This document shows, piece by piece, positions 844 to 25,496 of a stretch of 54,621 nt of DNA. The stretch lies in IMG/VR virus record IMGVR_UViG_3300037455_000816; one strand, given 5' to 3'. Position 1 is the first letter of the stretch, and each line of letters begins with the position of its first letter. The notes under the pieces were generated by a model. The model was not told where the DNA came from and did no database searches. It saw only the letters and a program-made list of their open reading frames with translations. A program made the position numbers and the translations under genes. Source of the stretch: a virus (Duplodnaviria > Heunggongvirae > Uroviricota > Caudoviricetes).

Positions 844-1176
844 ATGGCAGTAACAGTATGGATCAGCTTCGCAGCAAACATCTACTCCAACCAGTACCTG
901 AACAACGCGGCAGCACAGATAGGCAAAACCCGCTGTCTGGTATCTGGCCGGAACGAGAAAGAGCTGCTGCTGAAGATCAAGGAAAAGATATGGGCTATGT
1001 CATCCGAGGCCACCATCGAGGACGAACAGATAGCCAGGACGTATAACCAGTGGATCGCCGACAACTGGCACTGGACGAAAGTCCCCACCGAGATCTCCAA
1101 CGCCTTCATACGGGATATGCGCTTCGCACTCCCCTACTCACAGGACTTTAAGGACTGGCTCAGAAAGAACAACTAA
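844..1176 (+). CDS. hypothetical protein
   Basis: 110 aa, operon context. Confidence 0.7.
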   Translation: MAVTVWISFAANIYSNQYLNNAAAQIGKTRCLVSGRNEKELLLKIKEKIWAMSSEATIEDEQIARTYNQWIADNWHWTKVPTEISNAFIRDMRFALPYSQDFKDWLRKNN

Positions 1177-1202
1177 TAAATAACTTAAATATCATTACGA
1201 AA

Positions 1203-1541
1203 ATGGCAACGACGAATGACATCAGGATCTCTGCTCCCCACACCTCCATCTGGGGACCGATCCAGCACCAGAAAAAACTCGCCAACGGCGTGTATAGCGT
1301 AGATACGGCCTCCCACGGCGGCATCATGGTACACGTCTCAGTGGCCGACCTCTACATCAGCCAGAAGGCGAAGGATATCATCAAATATCCCGAAAAAGGC
1401 TGGTGGCACTTCGAGGAAGACTGCGACTGGGCGATCTTCGCACACGAAAACCGCGACATCATCCCCGAAAAGTGGATCCCCTACATCGAGAACGCTTTGC
1501 GAAATTACTATCCTGAATTTCTTGAATCATCAAACAAATAG
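1203..1541 (+). CDS. DUF7007-like protein
   Basis: Motifs WGPIQ...DTASHGG...HFEEDCDWAI recalled from this MGE family. Confidence 0.6.
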   Translation: MATTNDIRISAPHTSIWGPIQHQKKLANGVYSVDTASHGGIMVHVSVADLYISQKAKDIIKYPEKGWWHFEEDCDWAIFAHENRDIIPEKWIPYIENALRNYYPEFLESSNK

Positions 1542-1546
1542 CAGCT

Positions 1547-1780
1547 ATGAAACAGACAAAGAAGGAGGTCTATCTGGCCACACTCCAGAACGGCAAACGC
1601 CTCATGGTCATCCCAGAGGAACGCCCCGAATGGGACACCACGCTCACCGAGAAGAAGCGCATCATCATCGATGACCTGAACAAGAAACTGGATAACAAGG
1701 TGGTCGCCCTGAAGTTCTACGGCATCGCCGAGATCGACAAGACAGGCCGCTACAACCACAAGAGAGAAGACAACCAATAG
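1547..1780 (+). CDS. hypothetical protein
   Basis: 77 aa, operon context. Confidence 0.7.
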   Translation: MKQTKKEVYLATLQNGKRLMVIPEERPEWDTTLTEKKRIIIDDLNKKLDNKVVALKFYGIAEIDKTGRYNHKREDNQ

Positions 1781-1808
1781 TAATAACATTTCAAAAAACG
1801 ACAGTGAT

Positions 1809-2141
1809 ATGAAAAAGTTCAGACTGTACCAGATCAAGCGCGACGCAAAAGGCTCGCATGACATCAAGTTTTCGTCCTTGGAGTTCCTGAAGAAGCATAA
1901 GCTCATGAAGAAGCTCACGCCAGACCTCTACGGCTTCGTCTATGAGGGAACGACGGCAGGCGAGGACACCGACGAAATGCTGGAGGATATTTTTATGCGG
2001 TTCCAGGGCATGAAGCCCGAAGGGTTCAACGGTCACAGCGTCAGCACCTCCGACGTGGTGGTGATGGACGGTAAGACCTACTACTGTGATGATTTCGGAT
2101 GGAAGGAAATAGATCTCGACCTTAGCAGCGTAGGACAATGA
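1809..2141 (+). CDS. YodL-like domain protein
   Basis: FRLYQIK...VYEG...LEDIFMRFQ..KPEGFNGHSVSTSDVVV...YYCDDFGW matches the YodL motif. Confidence 0.8.
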   Translation: MKKFRLYQIKRDAKGSHDIKFSSLEFLKKHKLMKKLTPDLYGFVYEGTTAGEDTDEMLEDIFMRFQGMKPEGFNGHSVSTSDVVVMDGKTYYCDDFGWKEIDLDLSSVGQ

Positions 2142-2443
2142 AACTGACACTCACAGACATCCACACAGGACGGCAGATGACCGTCCTCTACGAGAACACC
2201 TTACTCCCGGCACTGGGAGAGGACGGGCTGCAGTACTTCATCTTTTCGACCGTTACACACAATGGCCAGCCGCGCACGGACTGTACGGTGGTCGATATGA
2301 CCCATAAGCTGGCCATCAGTCCGGTGAAATACCCCTATAAGGGTATTGATCGCGTAGAGTTCATATTTGACAAGGAAACCTTCGAGAAAGCAGACTCCAT
2401 CCCTGAATATACCCGCCTGCTGCGCGAGAAGAAGATTATTTAA
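2138..2443 (+). CDS. hypothetical protein
   Basis: 101 aa, ATGA overlap with upstream stop. Confidence 0.7.
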   Translation: MKLTLTDIHTGRQMTVLYENTLLPALGEDGLQYFIFSTVTHNGQPRTDCTVVDMTHKLAISPVKYPYKGIDRVEFIFDKETFEKADSIPEYTRLLREKKII

Positions 2444-2469
2444 TATTGGATATATAAAAATACGATAAT

Positions 2470-2862
2470 ATGGAAGTGAAACTGTATAAGGTGATCCGTC
2501 TCTGCGACGGCATCATGGAAGAGCGGTACAAAGGTACATACAAGCAGTGCCAGAAGTGGATAGCACACCGTGGCGACACTGGCCGCGCCTACTATCAGAT
2601 CACCGACCCTGAGACGGTGGATGTGAACAAAGAAGCCAAGCGGCTGGGCAAGGAAATCCTTGGCTTCATCCGCGAGAACCAGAAGAAGGACGCTAAGGTC
2701 GCCGAGATCCGCAAGGTCATGCGCTGTCAGCGTCATATCATCAGCGACAAGAACACCACAGCGGAAGAGGAGCGCGAGGCACGTAAGGCCCTCAAAGACC
2801 TGAAGCGCCAGCTCTTCGCCCGCTTCCGCGAGATTGCACAAGAGACAGTAATGAAACTCTAA
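2470..2862 (+). CDS. hypothetical protein
   Basis: 130 aa, operon context. Confidence 0.7.
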   Translation: MEVKLYKVIRLCDGIMEERYKGTYKQCQKWIAHRGDTGRAYYQITDPETVDVNKEAKRLGKEILGFIRENQKKDAKVAEIRKVMRCQRHIISDKNTTAEEEREARKALKDLKRQLFARFREIAQETVMKL

Positions 2863-2875
2863 AAGATATTAGCCT

Positions 2876-3208
2876 ATGAAGAATGTAGTGAAAGATATGG
2901 AACGCTTCGCCGAGGCCGTGAACACCATCGAGGAGCTGCTGCCTAACGTCAGGGGCTATCTGGTGATGGCGATGGATAAGGAGAAGAACGGCGTACTGGC
3001 ACAGCGGATGTGGCAGTTCATCAGCTCGCAGAACGTTTCCACCCGCCTGAAGAACGTCGTGGGACTGCTGGCGACATCAGACATGACCGTCCTCGAATTT
3101 ATCGAGGCGTACCCTAAGATGAAGTTCGTGAAGTCGCGCAACTGCGGCAAAGAGACCGTGCGCGAGCTGGAACGGCTCTTCCAGAATAACCTCGTTCATT
3201 GGAAATAA
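2876..3208 (+). CDS. protein with RNA polymerase alpha-CTD-like (HhH) C-terminal domain
   Basis: VSTRLKNVV...MTVLEFI...KFVKSRNCGKETVRELERLF aligns with alpha-CTD LTVRSANCL...IGDLV...[20 protein letters not shown]. Confidence 0.65.
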   Translation: MKNVVKDMERFAEAVNTIEELLPNVRGYLVMAMDKEKNGVLAQRMWQFISSQNVSTRLKNVVGLLATSDMTVLEFIEAYPKMKFVKSRNCGKETVRELERLFQNNLVHWK

Positions 3209-3221
3209 AACCCTCACAGCC

Positions 3222-3380
3222 ATGACAGTCACATCTTGGACGGATCTCAATGCGCTGGAACAGGCTCTGGATATGTTTCTGGAGAAGGCCAGCCCGAAAA
3301 AAAACAGCTGCTACCCCGATGCCCGCCGCCTGCTGGCAGAGGTACGCAAGGAACTCATAAAGGCAACTGATAATCTGTAA
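3222..3380 (+). CDS. small hypothetical protein (52 aa; not in ORF track)
   Basis: ATG-TAA ORF MTVTSWTDLNALEQ... fills the operon gap. Confidence 0.6.
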   Translation: MTVTSWTDLNALEQALDMFLEKASPKKNSCYPDARRLLAEVRKELIKATDNL

Positions 3381-3386
3381 ACGAAT

Positions 3387-3665
3387 ATGACAAAGGTTAA
3401 CATCAACTCCCAGACCCAGCACACCGGCCTCGCCGGTCTCTGCTACGTGTACGCAAAGAACAAGTGGATGCGCCAGTTCAAGGCGTTTGACCTCGACGGC
3501 TTCTTCGTGGCCAACCTCATATTCTGCTCGATGATAGCAGACAACGAGGAGAACCGCCGCAAACTCCAGGAGGTAGCCGACGAGTACGCCGGAGCCGAAT
3601 GGCAGTTCCAGCTCCGTAACCCACAGACGAAGGGCATCCTCTACACAACGAGTCTGGCAGCATAA
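3387..3665 (+). CDS. hypothetical protein
   Basis: 92 aa, operon context. Confidence 0.7.
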   Translation: MTKVNINSQTQHTGLAGLCYVYAKNKWMRQFKAFDLDGFFVANLIFCSMIADNEENRRKLQEVADEYAGAEWQFQLRNPQTKGILYTTSLAA

Positions 3666-3681
3666 TAAAAATTCTACTGAT

Positions 3682-3930
3682 ATGGTAATCATCAACGGAC
3701 ATAAGTTCTACGAGGTGCCGCACTCCTGCGGAAGCTGCCCGTTCATGCTGACAGGCAACACCGACGTGCCGAAGGTCGGCCACCACTGTGACCGGGGGCT
3801 GTGCATCCAGTGGAACGAGTCACACCACACCTGGGCGAACATCCCGCGCCGCTGTGCAAAGCTCTTCAAACAGGCTTTCGCCCTGTATGACGACAGCGGA
3901 GAGAACCTTGTGATCACATCAAAAGATTAA
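3682..3930 (+). CDS. Cys/His-rich hypothetical protein
   Basis: CGSCPF...HHCDRGLC...RRC pattern. Confidence 0.7.
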   Translation: MVIINGHKFYEVPHSCGSCPFMLTGNTDVPKVGHHCDRGLCIQWNESHHTWANIPRRCAKLFKQAFALYDDSGENLVITSKD

Positions 3931-3963
3931 GAACAGTTTAAGAACCCTTTAAGAATAAACATT

Positions 3964-4500
3964 ATGGATTACGAACTTACAAACCCCGTGCCGCAAAGCG
4001 GTGACAAGATCCGTATCACGGCAGCAAAAAACACCTACACAGAGTGGAAGGTAGGTGACATCGTGGAGGTGGTGGCCGGTAAGCCCGACTACTGGGGGAA
4101 ACCCGGCTTCTGCGCCTACACAAACAAGGACAGAGGCTACCGCCAGCGCAGCCGTAAGATCTGGGCAGGCCAGAACTCCTACGACTGGGAGATTATCGAA
4201 CGTGAGGGCAAGCCCTACACCTCCCCGGCCAAGAGAGCCGTAGCACGTAGCCAAGCTTTAAACCCTGAGACACGCGAGAAATATATCAAGTTCGCGCTGT
4301 CTAACATCCTGAAGAACGAATCCCTGACCCGCGTGATGACCACCATCAAGGGTGATGGTGTCGCCGTCAAGCAGACGGCCAAGGACTTCGTGACCCTGGC
4401 AGCCGCCATCGCAGACGAGATGATCCGCGAGGTCAACGGCTTGCCCGAAGATGAAGAATCCGAATCGGATAACGATGAATCAGAGTTAAGTGATAACTAA
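3964..4500 (+). CDS. hypothetical protein
   Basis: 178 aa, acidic tail. Confidence 0.7.
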   Translation: MDYELTNPVPQSGDKIRITAAKNTYTEWKVGDIVEVVAGKPDYWGKPGFCAYTNKDRGYRQRSRKIWAGQNSYDWEIIEREGKPYTSPAKRAVARSQALNPETREKYIKFALSNILKNESLTRVMTTIKGDGVAVKQTAKDFVTLAAAIADEMIREVNGLPEDEESESDNDESELSDN

Positions 4501-5671
4501 ACCCCTTACCACTATGGCAAAGTTCCAACCCATCAGAGTGAACCACTCTACACGTCCGGAGGACATCATCGCAACCATGCGCGAGGAAATGCCCTCAGAA
4601 TACTATTTCTTCCGCAAGAATTTCGGCGGCAGACAGAAATACTACAAATACGAAGACCAGATGCTCGACAAGGCTCTGGAGGAGAAAAAAGACCAGTACA
4701 CCGATATTCACAGCCATATCTCGAAGGCCGGGAACCGATGGCTTGTATATACGCAGGCGCAGTATTTCCCCAAGGCCATCTACGCACAGGCGTTTCAGTA
4801 CTCCTTCATCTACTATGAGACAATGGCCTCCTGCGGGGCTTTCTTCCCCACCTTCGACCAGGTGGAGTATAAGAAGAAAGGCAAGGAGCGTCGTAAGCAC
4901 GAGGCGAAGCCGACGGGTGTGATCATCTTCACCGCCCATTTCTTCTACCAGATGTCCGAGCGGACGGGCAAAGCCTACCGCTCGAAGGAACTGATCAAGG
5001 AGTTCATATCCACCAAGTGCGAACACGCGATACAGGCCGACGAGGACGGCGAGGTGATCGCCAAGTTCAAGGGAGGGTACGGCTTCGGCGTACAGCTCAG
5101 TGAGAACCCAAGGGTCTTCGAGATACGCACCTTCCTGAAGGACACGCAGCTCAACGGCAAGCAGCGGCGCAAAGTGGAGCCGCTGGATGCCATGTACGAG
5201 CTGGGGCGTGACGGCACGTTCATGAGCGAGGTGGCCATACATACGGCCATCAACCAGTACGACAACGACAAGGAACAACTCATCAAGGACAATATGAGAA
5301 AGTTCGAGGCAATAAAGAAGCTGGGGCTGGAGAAACGGCTGATCCTTCACTCGCTCTGCTTCGTGACCTACGTGAAGATCCTGAAGCGTCTCATAACGGA
5401 GGATATCACCCCGTCGCAGGAAATGGTCATCAGCCACTTCATCGGCAACCACGCCAGAAGCTTCGTGGAGAAATACGAGGATGCCGACCTCCAGCACCTG
5501 AGCTTGGAGAATGATAAGGAAATGTGCAATGAGATCGTGGACGTGATGACCGCCGCCGCCAAGGAGATGAAGATTCGCTCGCTGACACGCGACCGGCTGC
5601 AGGCGGCCTTCAACGACATCCTGCGCGAGGCCCACGAGGAGAGTTTGCAGCAACAGCAGAAACTTAATTAA
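4490..5671 (+). CDS. hypothetical protein, paralog of 6348-7154 (start may be 4514)
   Basis: 393 aa; shares S-x-x-PE N-terminal motif, H-[FY]-F-x-[QR]-x-x-ER and TF-x5-L-x3-Q motifs with 6348-7154. Confidence 0.75.
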   Translation: MITKPLTTMAKFQPIRVNHSTRPEDIIATMREEMPSEYYFFRKNFGGRQKYYKYEDQMLDKALEEKKDQYTDIHSHISKAGNRWLVYTQAQYFPKAIYAQAFQYSFIYYETMASCGAFFPTFDQVEYKKKGKERRKHEAKPTGVIIFTAHFFYQMSERTGKAYRSKELIKEFISTKCEHAIQADEDGEVIAKFKGGYGFGVQLSENPRVFEIRTFLKDTQLNGKQRRKVEPLDAMYELGRDGTFMSEVAIHTAINQYDNDKEQLIKDNMRKFEAIKKLGLEKRLILHSLCFVTYVKILKRLITEDITPSQEMVISHFIGNHARSFVEKYEDADLQHLSLENDKEMCNEIVDVMTAAAKEMKIRSLTRDRLQAAFNDILREAHEESLQQQQKLN

Positions 5672-5683
5672 ATTCCATGTGCC

Positions 5684-6220
5684 ATGTACGAGAGACGAGA
5701 AGAGTTCGGATATATGACGGTGCTTTCGGCAGACTGGGAATCCCACAAGGTGATCCGTCTTTCCTTCCGCGAACGGCCTACGCCCAAGCAGATGGTACGC
5801 CATGCCGTCGCCATCGCCAAGCGGTATAACGCACCGATCACCAAGCCGCTGGAGTTCATTCCCGACGAAATGGGCGGGAAGTTCCTCTTCGAGGTGGACT
5901 GTCACAACCTCACCTATAAGTATTTCTTCGACGGCGGGCGGCTCCAGAACTGCAAGGACGAGAAGATCACGGCTGCTGACATCAAGCGGTACAAGGAGAA
6001 ATTCGGGACGGACAGGTGTATCGACAAGTCCTTCAAGAAAAAGTTCTGGTACACCGACAACTGGACGGGAAAGGTGAAGGAGTTCAAGACCGTCAAGGCC
6101 GCCGTGGAAGCCGCCAACCAGGAGGTGGGCTGGCTCATAGACATCTACACCAACTACCCCTGCGGCAAGCCGTCAGCCCTGCTGGTGAGGACGGAGGCCA
6201 TCGGCTTCATGCCTCCCTGA
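5684..6220 (+). CDS. hypothetical protein
   Basis: 178 aa, operon context. Confidence 0.7.
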   Translation: MYERREEFGYMTVLSADWESHKVIRLSFRERPTPKQMVRHAVAIAKRYNAPITKPLEFIPDEMGGKFLFEVDCHNLTYKYFFDGGRLQNCKDEKITAADIKRYKEKFGTDRCIDKSFKKKFWYTDNWTGKVKEFKTVKAAVEAANQEVGWLIDIYTNYPCGKPSALLVRTEAIGFMPP

Positions 6221-6300
6221 AATATCTAAGAAAACCTTGATATTGGCCAAATATCAGGTTTTTTGTCCAGTACGACGTACTTAATGGATATTTCTACTTT

Positions 6301-6325
6301 CATATTTTCATATATACGATAATAT
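6301..6325 (+). promoter_or_regulatory. conserved upstream motif CATATTTTCATATATACGATAATAT
   Basis: Identical 25-mer at 39188-39212; 15-nt core also at 36068-36082 and 38099-38113. Confidence 0.7.
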
Positions 6326-6347
6326 AATCATCTTAAAACATTCAAAT

Positions 6348-7154
6348 ATGATATTACAGTCAATGACACCCGAAGAGAAGATACGGCAGATGGAGAAGCT
6401 TCAGCCCTACGTGAAGACGCTCGCGGCACGGGCGGCCCAGAAGGACTTCAACGCCCTGAAACGGGCGACACGCTATCCTGCCTATCTCTTCCTGCCTGAG
6501 AAGGATATCACCGGCATGGGGAAATGGACGGTGGTAGTGGTGGCAGACACCCGGGGAAACGTGATGAAAGGACAGTACACCTATCTGGCCTTCCAGACCT
6601 TCCATGTGACACACTCCAAAAACCCGATCAACAACGGCAAGGGCATCTGGGTATGCCATCCGCAGATCGGCCTCGGTGTCTGGTGCAACGAGTACCCGCC
6701 GCACTATTTCAGCCGCCTGCGTGAACGGCTCATAGAGCCTCGCGGCATCGTACAGCCCGACTTTCTCCAGCTGGTGAGAGAACTGTTCCGGCTCCACCAT
6801 CATTCAATGAACGTCATCAACGAGGGAACGGCCATCAAGAAAGGCGAGGACGGCCTCTATGACGTGGTGAAGGACGAGAGCCTGCAACGGCAGCCGGGTT
6901 ACGATAACTTCGCGTCGTACCACAAGGAGGGTATCAGTCTGGGCGTGTGCTTCAAACGCAGGTACTACCTTCATACGACCTTCGTTTCCAACGATCTGCT
7001 GAAGCGGAGCCAGGTCGAAATGCAGAAGGAGAACCTTGCGGAAGCCAGCAACCATGACTTCCGGCTGAGATACGACAAGGAGGCTACCTTCATGGAAGAG
7101 AAGGCCGTAGATGGTCATGTGGAGTTTGGACTGGAGAGAAAACCCAAGAAATAG
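6348..7154 (+). CDS. hypothetical protein, paralog of 4490-5671, directly upstream of array locus A
   Basis: 268 aa; MILQSMTPEE..., EYPPHYFSRLRER, HTTFVSNDLLKRSQ. Confidence 0.75.
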   Translation: MILQSMTPEEKIRQMEKLQPYVKTLAARAAQKDFNALKRATRYPAYLFLPEKDITGMGKWTVVVVADTRGNVMKGQYTYLAFQTFHVTHSKNPINNGKGIWVCHPQIGLGVWCNEYPPHYFSRLRERLIEPRGIVQPDFLQLVRELFRLHHHSMNVINEGTAIKKGEDGLYDVVKDESLQRQPGYDNFASYHKEGISLGVCFKRRYYLHTTFVSNDLLKRSQVEMQKENLAEASNHDFRLRYDKEATFMEEKAVDGHVEFGLERKPKK

Positions 7155-7208: not shown

Positions 7209-7216
7209 TACCTTTG
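7209..7216 (+). promoter_or_regulatory. Bacteroidota -7 promoter element upstream of array locus A
   Basis: TACCTTTG fits TAnnTTTG, 28 nt before scaffold S1; no clear -33 TTTG. Confidence 0.6.
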
Positions 7217-7244
7217 CAGACAGAAACCATAATGATAAAAATAT

Positions 7245-7313
7245 CGGGTCGGCTGTACGACCTTATGGTGAGGGTACGACCACTCACTAAGATGCTTAAA
7301 GACATCACGCAGC
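7245..7313 (+). ncRNA. guide-RNA-like scaffold S1 (69 nt)
   Basis: CGGGTCG-GCTGTA-CGACC / TGGTGAG..CTCACTA / GATG..CATC / ACGCAGC; homologous to five other copies with compensatory changes. Confidence 0.8.
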
Positions 7314-7420
7314 ATACGAGGCAGTATTGTAATTTTTACGGCTAAGATGCTGAAAGTATCATGCAGCCCCAAGAGGCTATGCTTAATATGTAAGCATCAT
7401 GCAGCCACAGGAGGCCATGC
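7314..7420 (+). CRISPR. degenerate mini-array A1 (short GATGCT/AGCATC-type repeats)
   Basis: 27-nt spacer, repeats 7341-7367 and 7376-7405 ending ATGCAGC, separated by 8-nt intervals CCCAAGAG and CACAGGAG. Confidence 0.5.
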
Positions 7421-7473
7421 TTTATTTATAGAAATACAAATCGGGATCATCCCGAATGAACATAAATACAATT

Positions 7474-7542
7474 CGGGCGGGCTATACCGCCTCATGTGGA
7501 GGGTATCACCACTCCATAAGCCTTGAAAAAGGCCTATACAGC
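7474..7542 (+). ncRNA. guide-RNA-like scaffold S2 (69 nt)
   Basis: GGCGG-GCTATA-CCGCC / TGTGGAG..CTCCATA / GCCTT-GAAA-AAGGC / TATACAGC; preceded by hairpin TCGGGATCATCCCGA. Confidence 0.8.
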
Positions 7543-7793
7543 TCACGACTGTAGAAACCATCTTCTTCTGGGCTGTTAATCACCTTAATTTGAAAGGGTC
7601 ATACAGCACACAAAGGTCGGCTTTATTTCAAAAGTGCGCTGTTAATGACCTTAATCTGAAAGGATCATACAGCCAAGAGCACTTGTGAAGTACGTTGATG
7701 AAAGCTGTTAATGACCTTTAGTTGGAAGGAACATACAGCACAAGGAGAAAATGGAGGAGCCGTCAATAACCTTTTTATAAAGGCATATACAGC
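7543..7793 (+). CRISPR. CRISPR-like array A2, 36-nt type VI-B-like repeats
   Basis: Repeats 7572-7607, 7638-7673, 7704-7739 (GCTGTTAATGACCTTAATCTGAAAGGATCATACAGC consensus) and degenerate 35-nt 7759-7793; spacers 29, 30, 30, 19 nt. Confidence 0.9.
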
Positions 7794-7877
7794 TCAATCG
7801 CAAGAAGTTGAAAATACATGATGTGAATAAAGACGGCTGTTGTATTCACCTCAAATTAAACCAATTAAATATACGTT

Positions 7878-8129
7878 ATGCCAGAAAAGAAAATTTTCTT
7901 GCCCGACGCAGAAACAGCCGGGAAACTCATAGATAATGCCTGGAAGGAGTTCAACGAACAGATGAAAAAGGCTGGAATGAACTTCGAGGGTACGCAGGTG
8001 TTTGAACTTCTTCACGACATCTTTGTCGCTGGTTACTCCTTCGGTCATAATGACTGCCTGACTATCATCCGCGACCAGCTGGAGATAGATAACTGGATGC
8101 AGTACACCAAGACACTACGGAAGAACTGA
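7878..8129 (+). CDS. hypothetical protein between array loci
   Basis: 83 aa, AT-rich UTR, followed 4 nt later by next ORF. Confidence 0.7.
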   Translation: MPEKKIFLPDAETAGKLIDNAWKEFNEQMKKAGMNFEGTQVFELLHDIFVAGYSFGHNDCLTIIRDQLEIDNWMQYTKTLRKN

Positions 8130-8133
8130 CCTC

Positions 8134-8577
8134 ATGGCACAAGACGATAGCAACATCAGAGGATGGGGAAGAATCCTTGCGAATCCTGAAAGCCAAGACA
8201 GGCTTATGAGTGCCATGAAGCTGGCCGACGATATAAAACACGATCCAGAACGAGTCAGAATCCCCGACGGTATAGATATCCGGCATATCTTCTATTTCTA
8301 CGTCAAGGACAAAGAAAAAAGAGGAATGAAGGGCTGGGTGAACGGACAGGAGGTGTTTGGCGTTCTTTCAAAGAATGAAACCGCCGCACTGTTGAATGGC
8401 TTTATCACCAAGGAACAGGCGTTCATGGCCAACAAAGGCATCCATAATAAGGTACATGAGATTGCAGACAGTCTGGCATCCAACCGCCTACAGGAAGCAA
8501 AGCTTCTACAAGAGAACTACGATAGGCTGGAGAAGGAATCACAAGAACCTTCAAAAACCAGTCGATTAAAAATATAG
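8134..8577 (+). CDS. hypothetical protein between array loci
   Basis: 147 aa; stop lies 8 nt before scaffold S3. Confidence 0.7.
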   Translation: MAQDDSNIRGWGRILANPESQDRLMSAMKLADDIKHDPERVRIPDGIDIRHIFYFYVKDKEKRGMKGWVNGQEVFGVLSKNETAALLNGFITKEQAFMANKGIHNKVHEIADSLASNRLQEAKLLQENYDRLEKESQEPSKTSRLKI

Positions 8578-8585
8578 AATATCTA

Positions 8586-8654
8586 CGGGCCAGCTGATTG
8601 GCCTCATGTGGAGGGATCATCCACTCCGCAAGATGCTTTGAAGCGTCATACAGC
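8586..8654 (+). ncRNA. guide-RNA-like scaffold S3 (69 nt)
   Basis: GGCCA-GCTGAT-TGGCC / TGTGGAG..CTCCGCA / GATGCT..AGCGTC / ATACAGC. Confidence 0.8.
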
Positions 8655-8750
8655 TACGGAGTATGAGGACGAAATCAAGACTCTGGTGTTAAAGCACCAA
8701 AAATGTAAGCATCACACAGCTGAAGAGCGAGAAGGCTTAACAATACAACT
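8655..8750 (+). CRISPR. degenerate mini-array B1
   Basis: 30-nt spacer, degenerate 36-nt repeat 8685-8720 (GGTGTTAAAG...TGTAAGCATCACACAGC), then a further ~30-nt spacer. Confidence 0.55.
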
Positions 8751-8817
8751 GGTGCATATGCGCCAATACAAAGAAAGAACAAATCGGGAAACTCCCGTAT
8801 AGTAATAAAACTAATGT

Positions 8818-8886
8818 CGGGCGGGCTGTACCGCCTTATGGTGAGGGCCACGCCACTCACTAAGCCTTACAAAAGGTCAATACAGC
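8818..8886 (+). ncRNA. guide-RNA-like scaffold S4 (69 nt)
   Basis: First 31 nt identical to S5 (23933 minus); CCTT-ACAA-AAGG stem; ends AATACAGC; preceded by hairpin TCGGGAAACTCCCG. Confidence 0.85.
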
Positions 8887-9009
8887 TCAAGAAAGGTTAA
8901 TGGTTCTGCTGTTAATGGCCTTCATTTGAAAGGAACATACAGCGGTCTTAGGGGTCAGCAAGTGCCGCGCGCAGCTGTTAATGACCTTAATGTGAAAGGA
9001 TTATACAGC
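8887..9009 (+). CRISPR. CRISPR-like array B2, 36-nt type VI-B-like repeats
   Basis: Repeats 8908-8943 and 8974-9009; spacers 21 and 30 nt. Confidence 0.88.
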
Positions 9010-9037
9010 GTCGGAAGAAACTTTATTCCGAGCCTGT

Positions 9038-9060
9038 TTTTGGACGCAGTGAGTCCAAAA
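9038..9060. terminator. probable bidirectional terminator between array B and convergent operon
   Basis: TTTTGGAC-GCAGTGA-GTCCAAAA inverted repeat. Confidence 0.6.
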
Positions 9061-9113: not shown

Positions 9114-9872
9114 TCAGCGTATGGTAAGCATTTCACACCAACATTGGGAGTACATCTTCGGAATACGTCTGTAATCCGCATATCCGTACAGGCCGCAGGA
9201 GAAAAACCGATGGCACTCCAGTATAACCGTTTTGCCGTCGGTGGTCACAGCCACGTCGAGCGTCCAAGCCTTCGGAGCCGTTTTGCCGTATGCCTTAACC
9301 ATGTTCCTGATAGCTTCACCATCGGGGAACACCAGACAGTCGCCTGAGTAGTTCCCGACGTGCTGGATCTCGCCGTTAAAGACGATGACCCGCCACTCTG
9401 AAGCTATGTCTATCATTTCAGAAACCTGACAGCGCACGAAATCCTTGCTTTCGTACCAGTCTGAAATGGTTCCCGTCCTGGCATATTTCGGTCCATTGAA
9501 ATCATCCTTGATCTTATCAAGGCTCTTCACGTAAATGCTATCGAGCTGCTTGAACCGCTCAGAAAAATCCTCACGGCTGCAAATATTCTCAATCGCCCTG
9601 CCAGCAAAGGGAAACAGACAACGCGGAACATTCAGAGGTGTCAAAGCTGCCTGTGCCTGCGGATAGTAGGTCTTCAGGAACTTGCTGACAAACTCCACCG
9701 TGCCGATGGGAATGTATTCGTCAGGGTTCAGATCGTCCATGCAGTCGATGTCTGCATAGAGCAAGCCAAGCTGCTCCTCACCCCACCACTCGTAATAGCG
9801 TTTGGCTTCTCGCATGATCCAGACAAAATCAAGCTGGATCTGACCGTTTATCGTCTGTAACAGAAAATTCAT
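9114..9872 (-). CDS. ATP-grasp domain protein (DUF4343/R2K-like)
   Basis: PIGTVEFV, YVKS...K, SEWRVIVFNGEI, AWTLDVAV, ILECH-FFSCGLYG motifs. Confidence 0.8.
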   Translation of the reverse strand: MNFLLQTINGQIQLDFVWIMREAKRYYEWWGEEQLGLLYADIDCMDDLNPDEYIPIGTVEFVSKFLKTYYPQAQAALTPLNVPRCLFPFAGRAIENICSREDFSERFKQLDSIYVKSLDKIKDDFNGPKYARTGTISDWYESKDFVRCQVSEMIDIASEWRVIVFNGEIQHVGNYSGDCLVFPDGEAIRNMVKAYGKTAPKAWTLDVAVTTDGKTVILECHRFFSCGLYGYADYRRIPKMYSQCWCEMLTIR

Positions 9873-11133: not shown

Positions 11134-11544
11134 TTAAATGAGATACTTCAACACATGAACGATGCTTTTCTCCTTGCAGTCCTCCGGGGATTCCTTGCTG
11201 GTAACGGAGAAAGCCCTGCGAAAGGCGTTATATTTATCGTTCATCCATTCGCCTGATCCAATCCAGAGCCAGTACAGGACTCCGCAGGTCTTCTTTCCGT
11301 CCGCGCCCTTAATCTTACCGACAATCGGGGAAACGGAAATCTCGATGTGAAGCTGATGCTTCTGACGGATCCACTGGCAGACCACCTCCTGCGTCGGGGC
11401 TGGGATAAACTGCTCCCTGTTGTCGGAAGACAGTTCAAGGAGGTTGCCAGAGCGCAAGGAATAGACCTTACGCCACTGGCCCTCAAAACCTTTCTCCTGA
11501 AGGAGCTTGGCCGTCTCGAAAGTGACAATCTGCTCTTCTGCCAT
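11134..11544 (-). CDS. Bacteroidota phage-type hypothetical protein (start revised to MAEEQ)
   Basis: IVTFETAKLLQEKGF...APTQEVVCQWIRQKH motif recalled from Bacteroides phage proteins. Confidence 0.7.
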   Translation of the reverse strand: MAEEQIVTFETAKLLQEKGFEGQWRKVYSLRSGNLLELSSDNREQFIPAPTQEVVCQWIRQKHQLHIEISVSPIVGKIKGADGKKTCGVLYWLWIGSGEWMNDKYNAFRRAFSVTSKESPEDCKEKSIVHVLKYLI

Positions 11545-11545
11545 A

Positions 11546-11845
11546 TCACTTGCTCTCATCGGGATAGAACTCATCGGCATACGCCCAAGAGATCATCCTG
11601 ACCGTGTTGCAGAAGAAAGTCCAGGACTGCTTACCGTTGGCGGGGTTGGGATAGACCTTCAGGCCGCCACGCTCACTGCGTACCAGCAGCTCCTTGTGAT
11701 TGTCAATACCCGGTTTCGGCTCCTCGGCGGGGTCAAACCATAACTGTTTGATGGCACAGATGCCACCTCTGACGAAATCGTCCTTACTGTTCTTTGCGTC
11801 GCGTTTCGCATTGTCCAGCAGCAGATCCAAAAATTCCTTTGTCAT
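11546..11845 (-). CDS. hypothetical protein (DUF551-like W..P motif)
   Basis: LWFDPAEEPKP...ELLV...ISWAY. Confidence 0.65.
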   Translation of the reverse strand: MTKEFLDLLLDNAKRDAKNSKDDFVRGGICAIKQLWFDPAEEPKPGIDNHKELLVRSERGGLKVYPNPANGKQSWTFFCNTVRMISWAYADEFYPDESK

Positions 11846-12612: not shown

Positions 12613-12849
12613 TTATTCATCCTTACTCTCCAGTTTCTCCAGTCCGTGACGGAGAAGGATCAGAAGATCCACTGGCTTTATATCCTCACTGGCAAAGGCT
12701 TCTACCACCTCAATGGCTTTCTTGAAGCCTCTGATATACTCATTCCTGCAGAGCTTTTCAAGCCTGCGCCTGCGCTCAATCTGCTGGCTCTCGTACCAGA
12801 CCTTATGAATGGCGTAATCATCGAATATCTTCTGTAGCTTACTGTCCAT
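12613..12849 (-). CDS. hypothetical protein
   Basis: 78 aa, overlaps recD2 stop. Confidence 0.6.
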   Translation of the reverse strand: MDSKLQKIFDDYAIHKVWYESQQIERRRRLEKLCRNEYIRGFKKAIEVVEAFASEDIKPVDLLILLRHGLEKLESKDE

Positions 12850-15067
12850 AGATATTTGTGGTCATGTTACTGCACTTCAAGATACGCTCCTTCAGGTAGG
12901 TGTGACGGGGCTTGATATGATAGTTCGAGACAGCCGTCCAGAGTGCCTGCTTGTTACCGATGATGATACAACGCTCCTTGGCCCTCGTAATGGCGGTATA
13001 GATAAGGTTGCGCTGCAACATCTTATAAGCGGAGTACATCACGGGTACGATGACCGTGGGGTACTCGCTGCCCTGGCTCTTGTGGATCGTGCTGGCATAG
13101 CTCAGCTGGAGTTCGTCAAGGTCGCTCTCCTCATACTTCACCACATGGTCATCGGAATAGTCCACCATGAGGTAGCCCATATCTTCGTTGACCTCGCTGA
13201 CGAGTCCCACATCGCCGTTGAAGACGGCCTTGTCATAGTTATTCTTCATCTGCATCACCCTGTCACCCTTGCGGAAATGGGTATCGCCGTAGCTCAACGC
13301 CTCTCCCTCGGGGTTCACCTTCTCCTGAATCTGCTTATTCAGGTTATTGCAGCTGGTAAGGCCACGCTGACGCATGGGGCAGAGTACCTGGATCTCCACG
13401 GGTTTCACACCGTAAGCCTTCGGCAGTCGTTCGCTCACAAGCTCCACGATCTGATCCGCTACAGGCTGTTCCTCCTTACCCTCGATGAAAAAGAAGTCCT
13501 TGCTGCCTCGGTTAGTCAGGTTAGGCATCCTCCCCTCAATGACCGCCTTGGCGTTCCAGGGAATACGGCTGGAGAAGTCCTGACGGTGGATAGTGGTGAG
13601 CCTGACAACCGGCACGAGGCCGCTGGTGATCAAGTCACTCAGGACGTTTCCGGCTCCCACACTCGGCAGCTGGTCAACATCACCCACAAGGATAAGGCGC
13701 TTATAGGGAGGAATGGCCTTCAGGAGTGAATGAAAAAGCAGGATATCCACCATCGAAGACTCATCCACGATAATCACGTCATCCTCCAAGGGGTTTTCCT
13801 CCCCACGCTGGAAACCGCCCGTTTCAGGGCTGAACTCCAGCGTTCTGTGGATGGTCTTTGCGTCATAGCCCGTACTCTCCTTGGCACGTTTGGCTGCGCG
13901 TCCGGTGGGGGCGCAGACGGCAATAGAGAGGTCTTTGCGTCTCAGGGCATGGAGGATGCCCTTCAATACGGTAGTCTTTCCCGTGCCAGGACCGCCGGTG
14001 AGAATCATCACACGGCTACGCAGGGCCTGACGGATGGCTTCTACCTGTATGGCATCGTACTGCATATTCTCAGTACGCAGGATATAGGCCACGGTACCAC
14101 GCACAATCTCCTCATCGCTATGACTGAGCCGCGTTTCGCTGCCTGCGCCAAGTCTGGCGATACGGCGGGCGCAGAAACATTCGGCATCATAGTATTCAGG
14201 CAGATACATCATCGGACCGTCCTCAATGAGGTCTTCGGTACGCAGACGGGCTGCAATAGCCGTCTCTATCTGCTCTGAATCAGCATGAAGGATATCCTCT
14301 GCCTCCTTGACAAGGCTTTCGTGTAGGATATACACATGACCTTCCTTGATCAGCTGGCTCATCACAAAGATGATGCCACTCTGCAATCGGCGGGGGTCAT
14401 CGTCGGCATAGCCCATGTGCTTGGCAATCTCGTCGGCCTTGGCAAAGCTAATGCCGTCGATACGCTCAATGAGGCAGTAGGGATTCTCCCTCACACGCCT
14501 CACACTCTCGGCACCGAAAGCCTTGATGATCTTCTTGACGAAGACATAGGAGATGCCGAAGCCGGAGAGAAACACCATCACGTCGCGCTCCAAGTTCTGC
14601 TGAAGCATGAAGTCAGAGGCGCGTTTGATGCGTTTGTCACCCAGCCCCTTAATGTCACGCAGGGCGTAAGGGGTATTCTGGATGACCTCAAACGTGCGGT
14701 GACCGAAACGCTCCACGATGGCATGGGCAAAAGCCTTACCGATACCCTTGATCTTTCCGCTGGCGAGGTATTTTTCAATACCTTCCAGCGTCTCAGGGCG
14801 AATCTCCATCCATGAAACGGCCTCGAACTGGCGGCCATAGGTGGCGTGTTCCTTCCAGGAGCCTTCCACGTCCAGATGGATGCCCTCACTGACCTCAAAG
14901 GAAGTACCGTTGATAGTGATCGTCTGCTGGTTGTCGTCACGAACGGCAGTGAAGACACTATACCCGCTGTCAGGTGCAAAGAAAACCTTGCGTCTGACAA
15001 TGCAGCAGATATGCTCCAATGCGGAATCCTGCGCTTCCTGCTTCAACGGTATCTCTGGCAGATTCAT
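12839..15067 (-). CDS. recD2: ATP-dependent RecD2-like SF1B DNA helicase
   Basis: N-terminal OB/HhH (IKGIGK, ENPY), Walker A GGPGTGKT, DESSM, GDVDQLPSV, YASTIHKSQGSEY, YTAITRAK. Confidence 0.95.
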   Translation of the reverse strand: MNLPEIPLKQEAQDSALEHICCIVRRKVFFAPDSGYSVFTAVRDDNQQTITINGTSFEVSEGIHLDVEGSWKEHATYGRQFEAVSWMEIRPETLEGIEKYLASGKIKGIGKAFAHAIVERFGHRTFEVIQNTPYALRDIKGLGDKRIKRASDFMLQQNLERDVMVFLSGFGISYVFVKKIIKAFGAESVRRVRENPYCLIERIDGISFAKADEIAKHMGYADDDPRRLQSGIIFVMSQLIKEGHVYILHESLVKEAEDILHADSEQIETAIAARLRTEDLIEDGPMMYLPEYYDAECFCARRIARLGAGSETRLSHSDEEIVRGTVAYILRTENMQYDAIQVEAIRQALRSRVMILTGGPGTGKTTVLKGILHALRRKDLSIAVCAPTGRAAKRAKESTGYDAKTIHRTLEFSPETGGFQRGEENPLEDDVIIVDESSMVDILLFHSLLKAIPPYKRLILVGDVDQLPSVGAGNVLSDLITSGLVPVVRLTTIHRQDFSSRIPWNAKAVIEGRMPNLTNRGSKDFFFIEGKEEQPVADQIVELVSERLPKAYGVKPVEIQVLCPMRQRGLTSCNNLNKQIQEKVNPEGEALSYGDTHFRKGDRVMQMKNNYDKAVFNGDVGLVSEVNEDMGYLMVDYSDDHVVKYEESDLDELQLSYASTIHKSQGSEYPTVIVPVMYSAYKMLQRNLIYTAITRAKERCIIIGNKQALWTAVSNYHIKPRHTYLKERILKCSNMTTNIYGQ

Positions 15068-15068
15068 C

Positions 15069-15995
15069 TTAGATTCCTTCCTTTTTCTTCACCCATTCAA
15101 AGCCGCTGCCGATAAACTGCGGATGATTCAGGTGTTCGTCGATATGGGTGCCTGCAAGTTCCTTGCGGACACTCTCTTTCCAGTAAACTGTCACGTCAGG
15201 GTATTCGGCAATGGCCTTGCGGACATTCAGGATAAACCGTGTCAGCTTCGACAAAGAACCGTAGTAGCCCTTGCATACACCAGACTGCAAACCGATCTTA
15301 TAGTGGTCACAGTAGGGCAGACTCTCACGGATCATCTCAAAGCTGCTGTCAAGGTCAATGACGGGTTCGATGCTCGCCCAGACGTTATAGCCAAGCTCCT
15401 TGAGCTGGCTCATGGCCTTGATACGGTCGCTATTGGCAGAGAAATGCCTTGCGGCTCCCTCTTCCAAGTCATCACGGCCAGTCAGGGTGAAGCCGAAAGA
15501 GACATATTTCTGGAGTCCCTGGTGGTAGTCCAGATTCTTTCCGAACCAGTCATTATGCAGCTCAAAGGTGAAGGCACACTTGGTGAGAACGGTCACGGGG
15601 ACCTGCTTCTGCACGGCATAGTTCACAGCCCGCCACGTCAGCGGATGGGTCTCATCCAGCATCGGGTCGGTGGAGAAGGAGAAGAAAATACCCGTCTGAC
15701 GGCAATAGTCAAGATGACGCTCCAGCTCGCGCTTGAAGACAATCATCGCGTATGTCTCGGCAGAAATATCGCGGTATTTCTTCGGGCGGTTCTTTTCCTT
15801 GGTGAAACAGTCCTCCAGAACGGCGTGATCCACGCCCAGCACGGGAGCCGTGAGACCCCTGCGGTTGTAGCAGTAGGTACACTGGAAGGGACAGCCGCGA
15901 TAGAAATTGCAGCCCACAGGCCCGTATTCACGGGCGGCTCCCTTGGAGGAATAGAGGCATTTGCCATTGATGATGATCTCTTCCATAGCCTTCAA
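15069..15995 (-). CDS. radical SAM protein
   Basis: GCPFQCTYCY (CxxxCxxC), FSFSTDP, VLTK, WASIEP. Confidence 0.9.
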   Translation of the reverse strand: MKAMEEIIINGKCLYSSKGAAREYGPVGCNFYRGCPFQCTYCYNRRGLTAPVLGVDHAVLEDCFTKEKNRPKKYRDISAETYAMIVFKRELERHLDYCRQTGIFFSFSTDPMLDETHPLTWRAVNYAVQKQVPVTVLTKCAFTFELHNDWFGKNLDYHQGLQKYVSFGFTLTGRDDLEEGAARHFSANSDRIKAMSQLKELGYNVWASIEPVIDLDSSFEMIRESLPYCDHYKIGLQSGVCKGYYGSLSKLTRFILNVRKAIAEYPDVTVYWKESVRKELAGTHIDEHLNHPQFIGSGFEWVKKKEGI

Positions 15996-16925: not shown

Positions 16926-17429
16926 TCAGTAACTTTTTTCGTTTAACTTCACATACTTGCCTTCAATGCCGCTGTTACGCAGCACCTCGTCATTATGCCG
17001 TCCCCAAGCCACAAGGCAGTTGCCGAAAAACGGGTTACTCTTCATCGGTGAGCCTTCCGGAGTCAGGAACTTCACCCGCTTACGCATGAAGAGCATACTG
17101 TCGGCAGTCGGGAAGATGACTTCCTGGAACAGCACGTTATCGGTACGGTTCACCAGCAGGGCAATGCCGTTGTCATGCCGTGCCAGTTTCTCCACAAACT
17201 GACGGAGCAACACCCTCGAATAGGGAGGATTGAGCCACACGCGGCTGTGATCCCAGTCCTGTTGCAGACCGTCATCCTCCTTGGTATAGTGCAAGGCGGC
17301 GGTGTCGAAAGGGCGAACCTGCGGACTGCACGGATCCAAATCGAATGGCCCAAGGGCTTCGATGATCCAGCGGGGCGTGTACCACTCATCGCTCGATACG
17401 ATGCGGTTCCTTTGCTGTCTTGTGTCCAT
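16926..17429 (-). CDS. phage-type DNA N6-adenine methyltransferase (Dam family)
   Basis: SDEWYTP, FDLDPCS, DDGL.QDW, WLNPPYS catalytic motif. Confidence 0.9.
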   Translation of the reverse strand: MDTRQQRNRIVSSDEWYTPRWIIEALGPFDLDPCSPQVRPFDTAALHYTKEDDGLQQDWDHSRVWLNPPYSRVLLRQFVEKLARHDNGIALLVNRTDNVLFQEVIFPTADSMLFMRKRVKFLTPEGSPMKSNPFFGNCLVAWGRHNDEVLRNSGIEGKYVKLNEKSY

Positions 17430-17431
17430 AA

Positions 17432-18475
17432 TCAGAACGGCGTAAAATCATTATCGTCTTCTTTCGGCTCGGCCTTCTTCGGTTCAGGCTTACAACCGAA
17501 CTTAGCCACATAGTCCTCCGGAGAGAGCTTGTATTTCAACTTGAAGCCATACTTGGCCGACTCAATAGTGTCCTTATCCCAGCCCTGCTCATTGGCAATG
17601 AGACGGCGGGCAGAATTAAGCGTCTCAGAGATCTGCTTCTGAAGCTTCTCCTTCTCCTTGTCAACCTTCGGGGGTTCCGGCTTACGCATCCGATAGTTGA
17701 GCTTGACATTCGGATAGAAGCGACGGATGACAGGAGAGAAAACCTGAATGAAGCGTTTCTCAATCATGGTATATTCCTCCGGTAATACTTGCAGGATCAG
17801 AACGGTATCGTTCTCGTAAAGGTCTTCATAAACGATATTCTTGAAGACCTTGCGCATCTCATCGCCGATGGCAGCCTGACAGAGCGCAGTCTGGCAGTCG
17901 CGCCAACGCTGGCGGTCATCCTCACGCTTCTGCTTGATGCGAGTCTCCTTTTCTTCGTATTCCTGATTGATGTACTTCTGCTTCATCATGTAGATCTCAT
18001 TCTTGAAATCCTTCAAGGCACAGGTAATGACCATCGGGTCAACCTTTCCCCAGAATTTTCCGAAATGACCAATCTTGAAGCGATAGAAGAAAAGCATAAT
18101 CTCAGAGAGCTTCATGTCCTTATACTCGGCAGCGATCATACGGGCAAGGTTTTTAACCTGCTCATCATCCATATTCTTGGAACCAGAGAAAGTGTTAAGT
18201 TCGCCAATATGCTCAGCAAGCCAAGAGGCAGAGGAACCAGGGCCATAGGCAGCGTCAAGAATTGACACGGCTGACGATTCCTGCATCAATGCTGCACGTT
18301 CATCAGCACCGAAGTTAATCTGACGTACTGGGTTATACGTCACACAGAACTTCTCATAGGATGGGCAAAGGTTCCTGAAGTTGGCTGCCTTCTGCTCTAA
18401 GCTCTGACATAACTCGGACTGTTCCTTTAAGCATGTCTTCGCGGCTACGATAGCCGTTATTATTGTCTGCTCCAT
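17432..18475 (-). CDS. DUF6633-like replication accessory (putative helicase loader)
   Basis: LSEIMLFFYRFKIGHFGKFWGKVDPMVITCAL motif; follows DUF4373 initiator; 122-nt overlap makes start uncertain. Confidence 0.65.
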   Translation of the reverse strand: MEQTIITAIVAAKTCLKEQSELCQSLEQKAANFRNLCPSYEKFCVTYNPVRQINFGADERAALMQESSAVSILDAAYGPGSSASWLAEHIGELNTFSGSKNMDDEQVKNLARMIAAEYKDMKLSEIMLFFYRFKIGHFGKFWGKVDPMVITCALKDFKNEIYMMKQKYINQEYEEKETRIKQKREDDRQRWRDCQTALCQAAIGDEMRKVFKNIVYEDLYENDTVLILQVLPEEYTMIEKRFIQVFSPVIRRFYPNVKLNYRMRKPEPPKVDKEKEKLQKQISETLNSARRLIANEQGWDKDTIESAKYGFKLKYKLSPEDYVAKFGCKPEPKKAEPKEDDNDFTPF

Positions 18476-23301: not shown

Positions 23302-23376
23302 TGGTATCCCCACCGGGAATCGAACCCAGATCTACGGCTTAGGAGGCCATTGTTCTATCCATTGAACTATGAGGAC
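23302..23376 (-). tRNA. tRNA-Arg(CCT)
   Basis: Minus strand GTCCTCA..TGGATAGAAC..ATGGC-CTCCTAA-GCCGT..GGTTCGATTCC..TGGGGAT-A-CCA; full cloverleaf, encoded CCA. Confidence 0.95.
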
Positions 23377-23778: not shown

Positions 23779-23870
23779 ATCTAATGAAATTTAATTATTA
23801 ATCCTATATCGATGATTCACTATGTGAGTGATGTTTAGCTGTATGGAAGCAGTTATGCAGTTATGCAGCA

Positions 23871-23933
23871 GCTGTATGATTTGCACCTTGGCGAGTAGCC
23901 TCGCCCTCACCATAAGGCGGTACAGCCCGCCCG
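23871..23933 (-). ncRNA. guide-RNA-like scaffold S5 (63 nt), 9 nt after the dCas12f-like stop
   Basis: CGGGCGGGCTGTACCGCCTTATGGTGAGGGC...CTCGCCAAGGTGCAAATCATACAGC; followed 25 nt later by a second CATACAGC (23838-23845). Confidence 0.85.
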
Positions 23934-23942
23934 GTAAAAACA

Positions 23943-25247: not shown

Positions 25248-25354
25248 GCTGTATATCCCGTCCTGACCATAATCTGCTTTGCCAAACGGAAGAAGGCAAG
25301 GGCGGGACTCTGCGAGTGGATTCCCTCTCGCATCAAGGCCGAACAGCCGACCCG
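25248..25354 (-). ncRNA. extended scaffold S6 (107 nt) in the 5' leader of the dCas12f-like gene
   Basis: GGTCG-GCTGTT-CGGCC / TGCGAG..CTCGCA / long TCCCG..CTTGCC..GGCAAAG..CGGGA stem / TATACAGC; ends 48 nt before ATG; preceded by GCGGGAA..TTCCCGC hairpin. Confidence 0.8.
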
Positions 25355-25496
25355 GTTCTGTATGTTGAAATGCTTCATCATAACTTTCGTTGTGCAAGGC
25401 GGGAAGAGCCTCACGGATGTTCCCGCTTGTGTTGTAGTAAACAACTCTTAATTTTTTTATTAATCTAAGTTCTATTTATATGAAAAAGAAAATACT

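Follow-up and report, generated by a model that had tools for sequence, protein, structure and literature searches.

Nuclease-dead Cas12f proteins (dCas12f) are known to work with guide RNAs of 85-105 nucleotides (nt) that sit immediately downstream of dcas12f, have guides of 14-16 nt and require no separate trans-activating CRISPR RNA (tracrRNA) (PMC13472631). In that study the guide RNA of Leadbetterella byssophila was found by RNA immunoprecipitation sequencing (Hoffmann et al., PMC13472631), and the repeat-fusion origin described below was touched on, both at a locus in Sphingobacterium and in a 'distinct cluster' of dCas12f linked to arrays. Cryo-electron microscopy of the Fta guide RNA resolved four paired regions, with the 3' guide starting near nt 77 (bioRxiv 10.1101/2025.06.10.658880; structures 9n9c and 9n9m). 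Altae-Tran et al. (PNAS 2023; PMC10691335) proposed how such RNAs arose: Cas12f lost RuvC-III, and the tracrRNA became fused to half a direct repeat, of which the 3' end was kept. The same paper linked the Sigma-TnpB/inactivated Cas12f lineage to relaxases, MobC and phage integrases, and listed Prevotellaceae. Here we describe a repeated RNA element in the IMG/VR virus record IMGVR_UViG_3300037455_000816, a stretch of 54,621 nt that we call the window throughout. Its six copies are very probably the guide-RNA scaffolds of the element's own nuclease-dead Cas12f (open reading frame (ORF) 23943-25199, minus strand). The RNA is not a new class but a member of the dCas12f guide-RNA family described between 2023 and 2026.

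The window holds six scaffold copies of about 70 nt, S1-S4 on the plus strand and S5 and S6 on the minus strand. The initial annotation had described the six under the range 7245-8886. That range holds S1-S4; S5 and S6 lie outside it and were located by a motif search of the window. The copies, the gene they flank and the motif ahead of S1 are as follows.

7209..7216, plus strand: TAccTTTG, a Bacteroidetes-type -7 promoter motif about 28 nt upstream of S1; putative promoter
7244..7313, plus strand: S1, flavour A, stem 3 GATG/CATC, 3' end CACGCAGC; 80.8 bits, folds
7473..7542, plus strand: S2, flavour B, stem 3 CCTT/AAGG, loop GCTATA; 81.6 bits, folds
8585..8654, plus strand: S3, flavour A; 79.5 bits, folds
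8817..8886, plus strand: S4, flavour B; 84.7 bits, folds
23871..23934, minus strand: S5, beginning 9 nt past the dcas12f stop codon, the canonical guide-RNA position; 73.2 bits
23943..25199, minus strand: dcas12f (P0001), encoding a nuclease-dead Cas12f homologue of 418 amino acids (aa)
25248..25355, minus strand: S6, with a long stem-3 arm, in the dcas12f 5' leader and ending 48 nt ahead of the ATG; 63.1 bits

A degenerate stem-1 motif matched the window eight times, where 0.72 matches were expected by chance, and six of the eight were the scaffolds. When a covariance model was run with filters off, the six copies scored 63-85 bits and no other full copy was found in the window. On the plus strand between 7000 and 9100, the only occurrence of TAnnTTTG is the one at 7209..7216. 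Conserved hairpins lie about 20 nt upstream of S2 (CGGGATCATCCCG, 7441-7455) and of S4 (CGGGAAACTCCCG, 8785-8797); both look like terminators when read on the minus strand.

In minimum-free-energy folds of all six copies, stems 1, 2 and 3 formed while the stem-1 loop and the 3' tail stayed unpaired, and the folds of S1-S4 had z scores of -2.9 to -3.6. Stem 1, of 5-6 bp, carries a free loop of 6 nt; stem 2, of 7 bp, contains a bulged A and an inner GG/CC; and the unpaired tail of 7-9 nt ends in ACAGC. Stem 3 varies from copy to copy and in S6 is an arm of about 50 nt, as had been described. The variants quoted earlier for the other two stems were also present: GGTCG/CGACC in S1, GGCGG/CCGCC in S2, S4 and S5, GGCCA/TGGCC in S3 and GGTCG/CGGCC in S6 for stem 1, and all five versions of stem 2 with their bulged A and inner GG..CC.

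The initial annotation had argued that covariation across these six paralogs supports both the stems and a pseudoknot between the stem-1 loop and the 3' end. For the stems this was borne out, with stem 1 100% paired and both sides changed at three of five pairs, and stem 2 96% paired and both sides changed at three of nine. The pseudoknot, 86% paired, showed no compensatory change among the six copies, so that inside the window it is an argument from complementarity only and its covariation required a wider alignment. We therefore built a covariance model, R1, from the six window copies using stems 1 and 2 only and leaving the pseudoknot out. R1 was searched against 52 sources: the window together with IMG/VR viral contigs and GTDB genome contigs encoding relatives of the dcas12f protein. 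The search gave 102 matches, 93 of them distinct; 96 lay outside the window, in 49 related loci.

Across the 93 distinct homologues, stem 1 was 99.4% paired with double changes at four of five pairs, stem 2 was 89.5% paired with double changes at eight of nine, and the predicted pseudoknot was 93.4% paired with double changes at four of six. One pseudoknot pair was C-G in 73 homologues and U-A in 10; another was U-A in 55, C-G in 11 and U-G in 17. Loops reading GUUGUA were matched with tails reading UACAAC, and loops reading GCUGCA with tails reading UGCAGC, in several separate lineages. The pseudoknot covariation score was 0.546, compared with 0.160 for shuffles (none of 500 reached 0.546) and at most 0.097 for slid partners. 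Because the pseudoknot was absent from the search model, this support is independent of the model. In another sample the S2 loop reads GCTGTA in place of the window's GCTATA, which mends the sole mismatched pseudoknot pair. These data indicate that the 70-base repeat element is a genuine structured RNA and that it contains a pseudoknot.

The scaffolds are tied to one gene. S6 and S5 flank dcas12f in the window on the gene's own strand, and in the related loci all 96 of the external copies are on the dcas12f strand. Most of these (78/96) lie within 600 nt of dcas12f, 34 upstream and 44 downstream, and 48 of the 49 loci with matches have at least one copy within that distance. Together with the covariation, this linkage supports the earlier assignment of the element to functional RNAs of the TnpB omega-RNA or Cas12 handle type, with a pseudoknot just 5' of the guide. 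No conserved protein neighbour beside dcas12f was found across the mobile-element clade to which the window protein belongs; dcas12f and its flanking scaffolds and arrays thus form a self-contained cassette.

The best match of the 418-aa protein among PDB sequences was 9n9c, 'Nuclease-deactivated Cas12f' (E 4.5e-39), followed by active Cas12f proteins (9nzo, 3e-31). Its AlphaFold model (predicted local distance difference test score, 75) gave 9n9c (E 1.2e-25) and 9n9m as top Foldseek matches. The NCBIfam model guided_TnpB matched it at 1.9e-17, which is under the family cut-off, and a Pfam scan of the protein gave no match. The alignment to 9n9c runs out at query residue 397 (of 418) and target residue 361 (of 365); active Cas12f proteins reach about 500 aa. 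Since the C-terminal end of the alignment coincides with that of dCas12f, the zinc finger and RuvC-III are absent from the 418-aa protein. The RuvC-I Asp (DLGIN) of active Cas12f 9nzo aligns to R249, and the same truncation and Asp replacement run through the family alignment. Judged from its sequence, the protein thus has the Cas12f sequence and predicted fold with a RuvC domain that is presumably inactivated. Metagenomes contain 870 homologues, mostly of 377 aa. An IMG/VR scan with a single protein as query was null; relatives were found once an alignment was used as query.

A maximum-likelihood tree groups the window protein with IMG/VR contigs and Prevotella/Bacteroidales metagenome-assembled genome (MAG) contigs in a clade with 100/100 support, distinct from both the sigma-E clade and a SusCD-adjacent one. 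The closest solved relative activates transcription (PMC13472631), and the window complex could do the same as dCas12f-sigma-E does, through another partner that recruits RNA polymerase. Proteins that might fill that role are encoded near dcas12f in three related contigs, each with a helix-turn-helix and an alpha C-terminal-domain (alpha-CTD)-like region. Several observations make activation an unlikely role here. The window protein sits in its own clade, about 30-35% identical to the sigma-E-linked one, and no neighbour protein is conserved across it. A tblastn search with four Sigma70_r4 proteins found no sigma-E-type gene in the window or in loci L001-L047; Sigma70_r4 proteins were seen upstream of distant homologues only, directly 5' of dcas12f. 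The alpha-CTD-like protein, finally, has no homologue in the window.

Those three contigs, of viral or MAG origin (L021:8200-9162, also L010:7519-8388 and L047:14641-15498), encode a 320-aa protein with an N-terminal helix-turn-helix and an RNA polymerase alpha-CTD-like domain (PF03118, 1.1e-14). In L021 the gene is just upstream of the scaffold and dcas12f. In the sigma-less clade it might serve as a different partner for recruiting the polymerase.

Two further groups of relatives were observed. In a separate 100/100-supported clade from Muribaculaceae and other Bacteroidales, dcas12f directly follows susC/susD-like genes. In seven such loci (L054, L055, L056, L057, L060, L062 and L080) a scaffold lies about 70-170 nt upstream of dcas12f and is followed by one conserved guide, GGTTAGTAATTAAGTAC...; a close variant is present in L046 and L069. 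In none of these SusCD-adjacent loci was a sigma-E gene detected. In Olivibacter sp. (L085:9986-11081) a sigma-E-linked dcas12f is split into two ORFs (238 and 135 aa), possibly by a frameshift or an assembly error; a scaffold and an array of seven spacers still come after it.

The sequence after the conserved ACAGC end of the scaffolds is unique. In the window, this sequence and the repeats that accompany it are arranged as follows.

7314..7343, plus strand: S1 guide, read from the sequence
7344-7367 and 7378-7405, plus strand: S1 remnants, two degenerate half-repeats, then a hairpin with a T-run
7543..7823, plus strand: array B, after S2, with spacers 7543-7571, 7608-7637, 7674-7703, 7740-7761 and 7794-~7823
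7572, 7638 and 7704, plus strand: starts of the array B repeats, 36 nt each, plus a degenerate repeat at 7762-7793
7878..8577, plus strand: two small ORFs, of 83 aa and 147 aa, separating the two scaffold/array cassettes
8655..8750, plus strand: array C, after S3, with spacer 8655-8684, variant repeat 8685-8720 and spacer 8721-8750
8887..9039, plus strand: array D, after S4, with spacer 8887-8907, repeat 8908-8943, spacer 8944-8973, repeat 8974-9009 and a trailing guide from 9010
23838..23870, minus strand: S5 guide of 26 nt, then a residual repeat end ATACAGC

The window holds five 36-nt repeats with at most three mismatches, a period of 66 and spacers of about 30 nt, as well as variant repeats. 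These are regular direct repeats with unique spacers, as in type V-F-like CRISPR arrays. The scaffold is built from the same parts: its last 22-25 nt or so resemble the 3' part of the repeat, its stem-1 loop has the sequence of the repeat 5' end (GCTGT), and the plain repeat folds as a hairpin closed by GCUGU/ACAGC. Most scaffolds in the relatives are about 125 nt long, and their final 36 nt are the first repeat of the downstream array. For 41 of the 102 scaffold matches, these final 36 nt recur downstream with a period of 65-67 nt, mostly at 34-36 of 36 identical positions. The long arm of the long-form relatives folds as an anti-repeat:repeat duplex. The shared repeat and this fold indicate that the scaffold is a tracr-like module fused to a full repeat in the long form and to a half repeat in the short form of the window.

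Arrays can also serve other machinery. Repeats of 36 nt with 30-nt spacers and a hairpin fold recall those of Cas13b, and orphan mini-arrays and RNA anti-CRISPRs are known cargo of mobile elements. The window's arrays and scaffolds could thus serve a host effector (type VI-B Cas13b or an active Cas12f) or act as RNA decoys against host CRISPR, a view to which the distance of S1-S4 from dcas12f lends some weight. We consider this very improbable. The repeat and the scaffold share their 3' end, and the scaffold is tied to a same-strand dcas12f in 48 of 49 loci. As for Cas13b in particular, the largest ORFs of the window are not Cas13-like (one, of 742 aa, is a RecD2 helicase; the other, of 671 aa, had no match in Pfam or PHROG), and Rfam CRISPR repeat families were unmatched even at E-values up to 1. 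No other Rfam family matched the element either, at gathering score or at E-values up to 1, as the initial annotation had expected of a novel RNA. Novelty does not follow from this, because the class is published (PNAS 2023, PMC10691335; Nature 2026, PMC13472631) and is missing from Rfam 15.

The position of S6 brings in another reading, in which some copies, S6 above all, are cis-acting mRNA sites and dCas12f binds or processes its own 5' leader and so limits its synthesis. The mRNA of TnpB is known to be processed by the protein itself to give omega-RNA. With 48 nt between the end of S6 and the ATG, the 'guide' of S6 is the 5' untranslated region of the gene, and 33 of the 49 related loci likewise have a scaffold just upstream of dcas12f. 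In several relatives, however, upstream scaffolds head arrays of unique 30-nt spacers, so that an upstream scaffold may still make guides. We regard cis-action as possible though doubtful; it is compatible with the guide-scaffold reading, and regulation by S6 is putative.

Several points weigh against the six elements being dCas12f guide scaffolds. Binding of the scaffold RNA by the 418-aa protein is a prediction from sequence. S1-S4 lie 15-17 kb from dcas12f; in relatives nearly all copies are within 5 kb. The plain array repeats are without stems 1 and 2, which bears on whether they make working guides. The R1 matches that would connect the scaffolds with the published guide RNAs, lying like these directly downstream of sigma-E-linked dcas12f in L071 (a MAG of L. 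byssophila, whose guide RNA is among those published), L085, L051 and L048, are weak (24-40 bits). The arrays are identical in three samples and so give no sign of spacer turnover. Finally, a target was found for none of the window's 13 guides or three downstream remnant stretches.

The last result comes from several searches. Inside the window, no guide had a target with at most two mismatches in 16 nt, and reference phages and plasmids gave chance-level matches only. Exact 22-mers from three spacers were absent from IMG/VR, and spacer C1 was absent from JGI metagenomes. In those metagenomes the S5 guide matched only the same element in another sample (L106) and tandem repeats, the latter in a short contig (L105) and in L104 and L107, which have no long ORFs. 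The window guides were unmatched in 87 related loci and had no credible target in five Bacteroidales MAGs carrying related elements. A scan of 401 genomes of the family of one Prevotella MAG gave no target at low sensitivity, two candidates being scored per genome. No self-targeting was seen in near-complete related viral genomes (85-100% complete).

One candidate was considered and rejected. Spacer 7740-7761 matched a Tiamat TmtA-like defence gene of MAG G001 at 19 of 19 nt from its first base, and a neighbouring spacer had a 14/18-nt match in G001, 59 nt away, which together suggested an anti-defence role. The 401-genome scan gave matches of up to 20/20 in unrelated genes encoding ...KEKMEE..., and since these are equally good, the match is a chance one of a purine-rich spacer. 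The region itself is a defence island in a Bacteroidia MAG with a related dcas12f element (L125:4304-12698, contig C2 of G001), where a 1601-aa Tiamat TmtA-like protein (PADLOC, 5.6e-42) adjoins a 1193-aa PDC-S68 protein (1166 bits).

Among the relatives one genuine protospacer was found, in a coding gene of the element L011, to which a spacer of the related contig L009 corresponds in 27 of 30 nt; its 5' flank is TTTTG. This flank is compatible with the published 5'-G motif.

With regard to spacer change, the near-identical viral contigs L012, L013 and L018 (~11390-11680) are distinguished by one scaffold-proximal spacer, which some of them have and others lack. The difference points to polarised spacer gain or to loss through repeat recombination, with cas1/cas2 not nearby. 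In the window, neither Cas1 nor Cas2 was found among about 37 ORFs scanned with Pfam, a scan that was not exhaustive.

How might the guide scaffolds work? The 5' module consists of stem 1, with its 6-nt loop GCUGUA, and stem 2, with its bulged A. A short stem 3 joins this module to the half of the CRISPR-like repeat that lies 3' and has AUACAGC as its end, and pairing of the stem-1 loop with that end forms a pseudoknot directly 5' of the guide, which it would position. S2, S3 and S4 would be the first units of short arrays continued by plain repeats (after S3, by one variant repeat); S1 is followed by a single guide and two degenerate half-repeats. dCas12f bound to a scaffold would form an R-loop on matching DNA beside a short 5' motif and stay there. 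Because it has no working RuvC site, the complex should bind matching DNA without cleaving it. Once bound, it may silence the target or exert some other control over its transcription or replication, and in view of the missing sigma partner, silencing or a roadblock, as in Cas12m or TldR, is the most economical role. Targets are likely to be other mobile elements or host genes, and S6 in the 5' leader of the gene may add feedback on dCas12f expression. For the guide length, the target-adjacent motif, the use of later array units and the identity of the targets, the values used in this scheme are what we infer.

A more specific proposal, which we put forward tentatively, is that stems 1 and 2 are a built-in tracrRNA whose loop clamps the ACAGC of the repeat preceding a guide, acting in cis on the first unit and perhaps in trans on plain repeats. 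A few scaffolds would then serve many spacers, and a non-cutting Cas12f without a sigma partner would silence rival mobile elements or host genes. If this is true, the system would be a natural CRISPR interference carried by a mobile element, and a living link between CRISPR arrays and single guide RNAs.

The rest of the window looks like a mobile element, with replication initiators, a primase, a tyrosine integrase, ParA, a RecD2 helicase and a Dam methylase. The cargo and replication genes placed on the map are these.

9114-9872, minus strand: R2K ATP-grasp protein
12839-15067, minus strand: RecD2-type helicase
15069-15995, minus strand: radical-SAM-like protein
16926-17429, minus strand: Dam methylase
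18354-19821, minus strand: two Lin1244_N replication initiators

The 83-aa and 147-aa ORFs between the cassettes are identical in two other samples; they had no Pfam or PHROG match, and their atlas leads score at most 0.82. Upstream of S1, a plus-strand operon (844-7154) encodes 12 proteins with no family match. A tRNA gene (23305-23376, minus strand; 64 bits) lies about 460 nt downstream of the S5 guide locus, past a 129-aa coiled-coil ORF.

The window adds to the known family a clean six-copy case with two scaffold flavours, with arrays 15-17 kb from the effector gene, and with a short tracr-half-repeat scaffold that still heads full-repeat arrays. The analysis also provides a well-supported secondary structure with a covarying pseudoknot for the guide RNAs of a large nuclease-dead Cas12f clade (870 homologues). 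The sigma-E-less clade was found here in metagenome assemblies only, carried by mobile elements and phages of gut and rumen Bacteroidales. On the practical side, its members are predicted programmable DNA binders of 377-418 aa with scaffolds of about 70 nt.

Compared with the more distant systems, the window shares the protein fold of type V-F Cas12f (AsCas12f, Un1Cas12f1, CnCas12f1) and arrays without cas1/cas2 nearby, and its long-form relatives have the anti-repeat:repeat duplex and the short helix to the repeat 3' end. It differs from type V-F in that the nuclease is predicted to be inactive and is truncated, and in that the tracr-like part is covalently joined to the first repeat. The proposed RNA-guided DNA binding without cleavage, for silencing, makes the window system a functional analogue of Cas12m (type V-M) and TldR; these belong to other TnpB/Cas12 branches and use other RNAs, and repression by the window system is suggested by analogy only. 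In contrast to a TnpB omega-RNA, S5 begins past the stop codon, the element occurs in several copies and with arrays, and no IS200/IS605 context was seen. Type VI-B (Cas13b) arrays differ in having an effector, for which the window offers no candidate ORF, as well as in their Rfam repeat families.

The closest likeness is to the dCas12f guide RNAs (PMC13472631). The window has a truncated, RuvC-dead Cas12f, a guide RNA beside the gene and on its strand, no separate tracrRNA, and a scaffold of about 70-90 nt with four paired regions and a 3' guide; stems 1-3 and the pseudoknot probably correspond to the published P1-P4. A guide that begins near nt 77 of the Fta RNA agrees with such a set of helices on a scaffold of 70 nt. 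Unlike dCas12f-sigma-E, the window has no detected operon partner of the rpoE type (sigma-E with a C-terminal extension), and its protein, 26-27% identical to the solved Fta dCas12f, belongs to a separate clade. It sits on a mobile element, with relatives on IMG/VR viral contigs, and has six scaffolds, three of them heading CRISPR-like arrays and S1-S4 remote from the gene. Its guides are 30-nt spacers of diverse sequence, not a single conserved guide of 14-16 nt. The rpoE link, the defining trait of the clade in PMC10691335, is also absent. The short scaffolds of the window are nevertheless exactly the tracr plus half-repeat of that paper's scenario. [quoted passage not shown]

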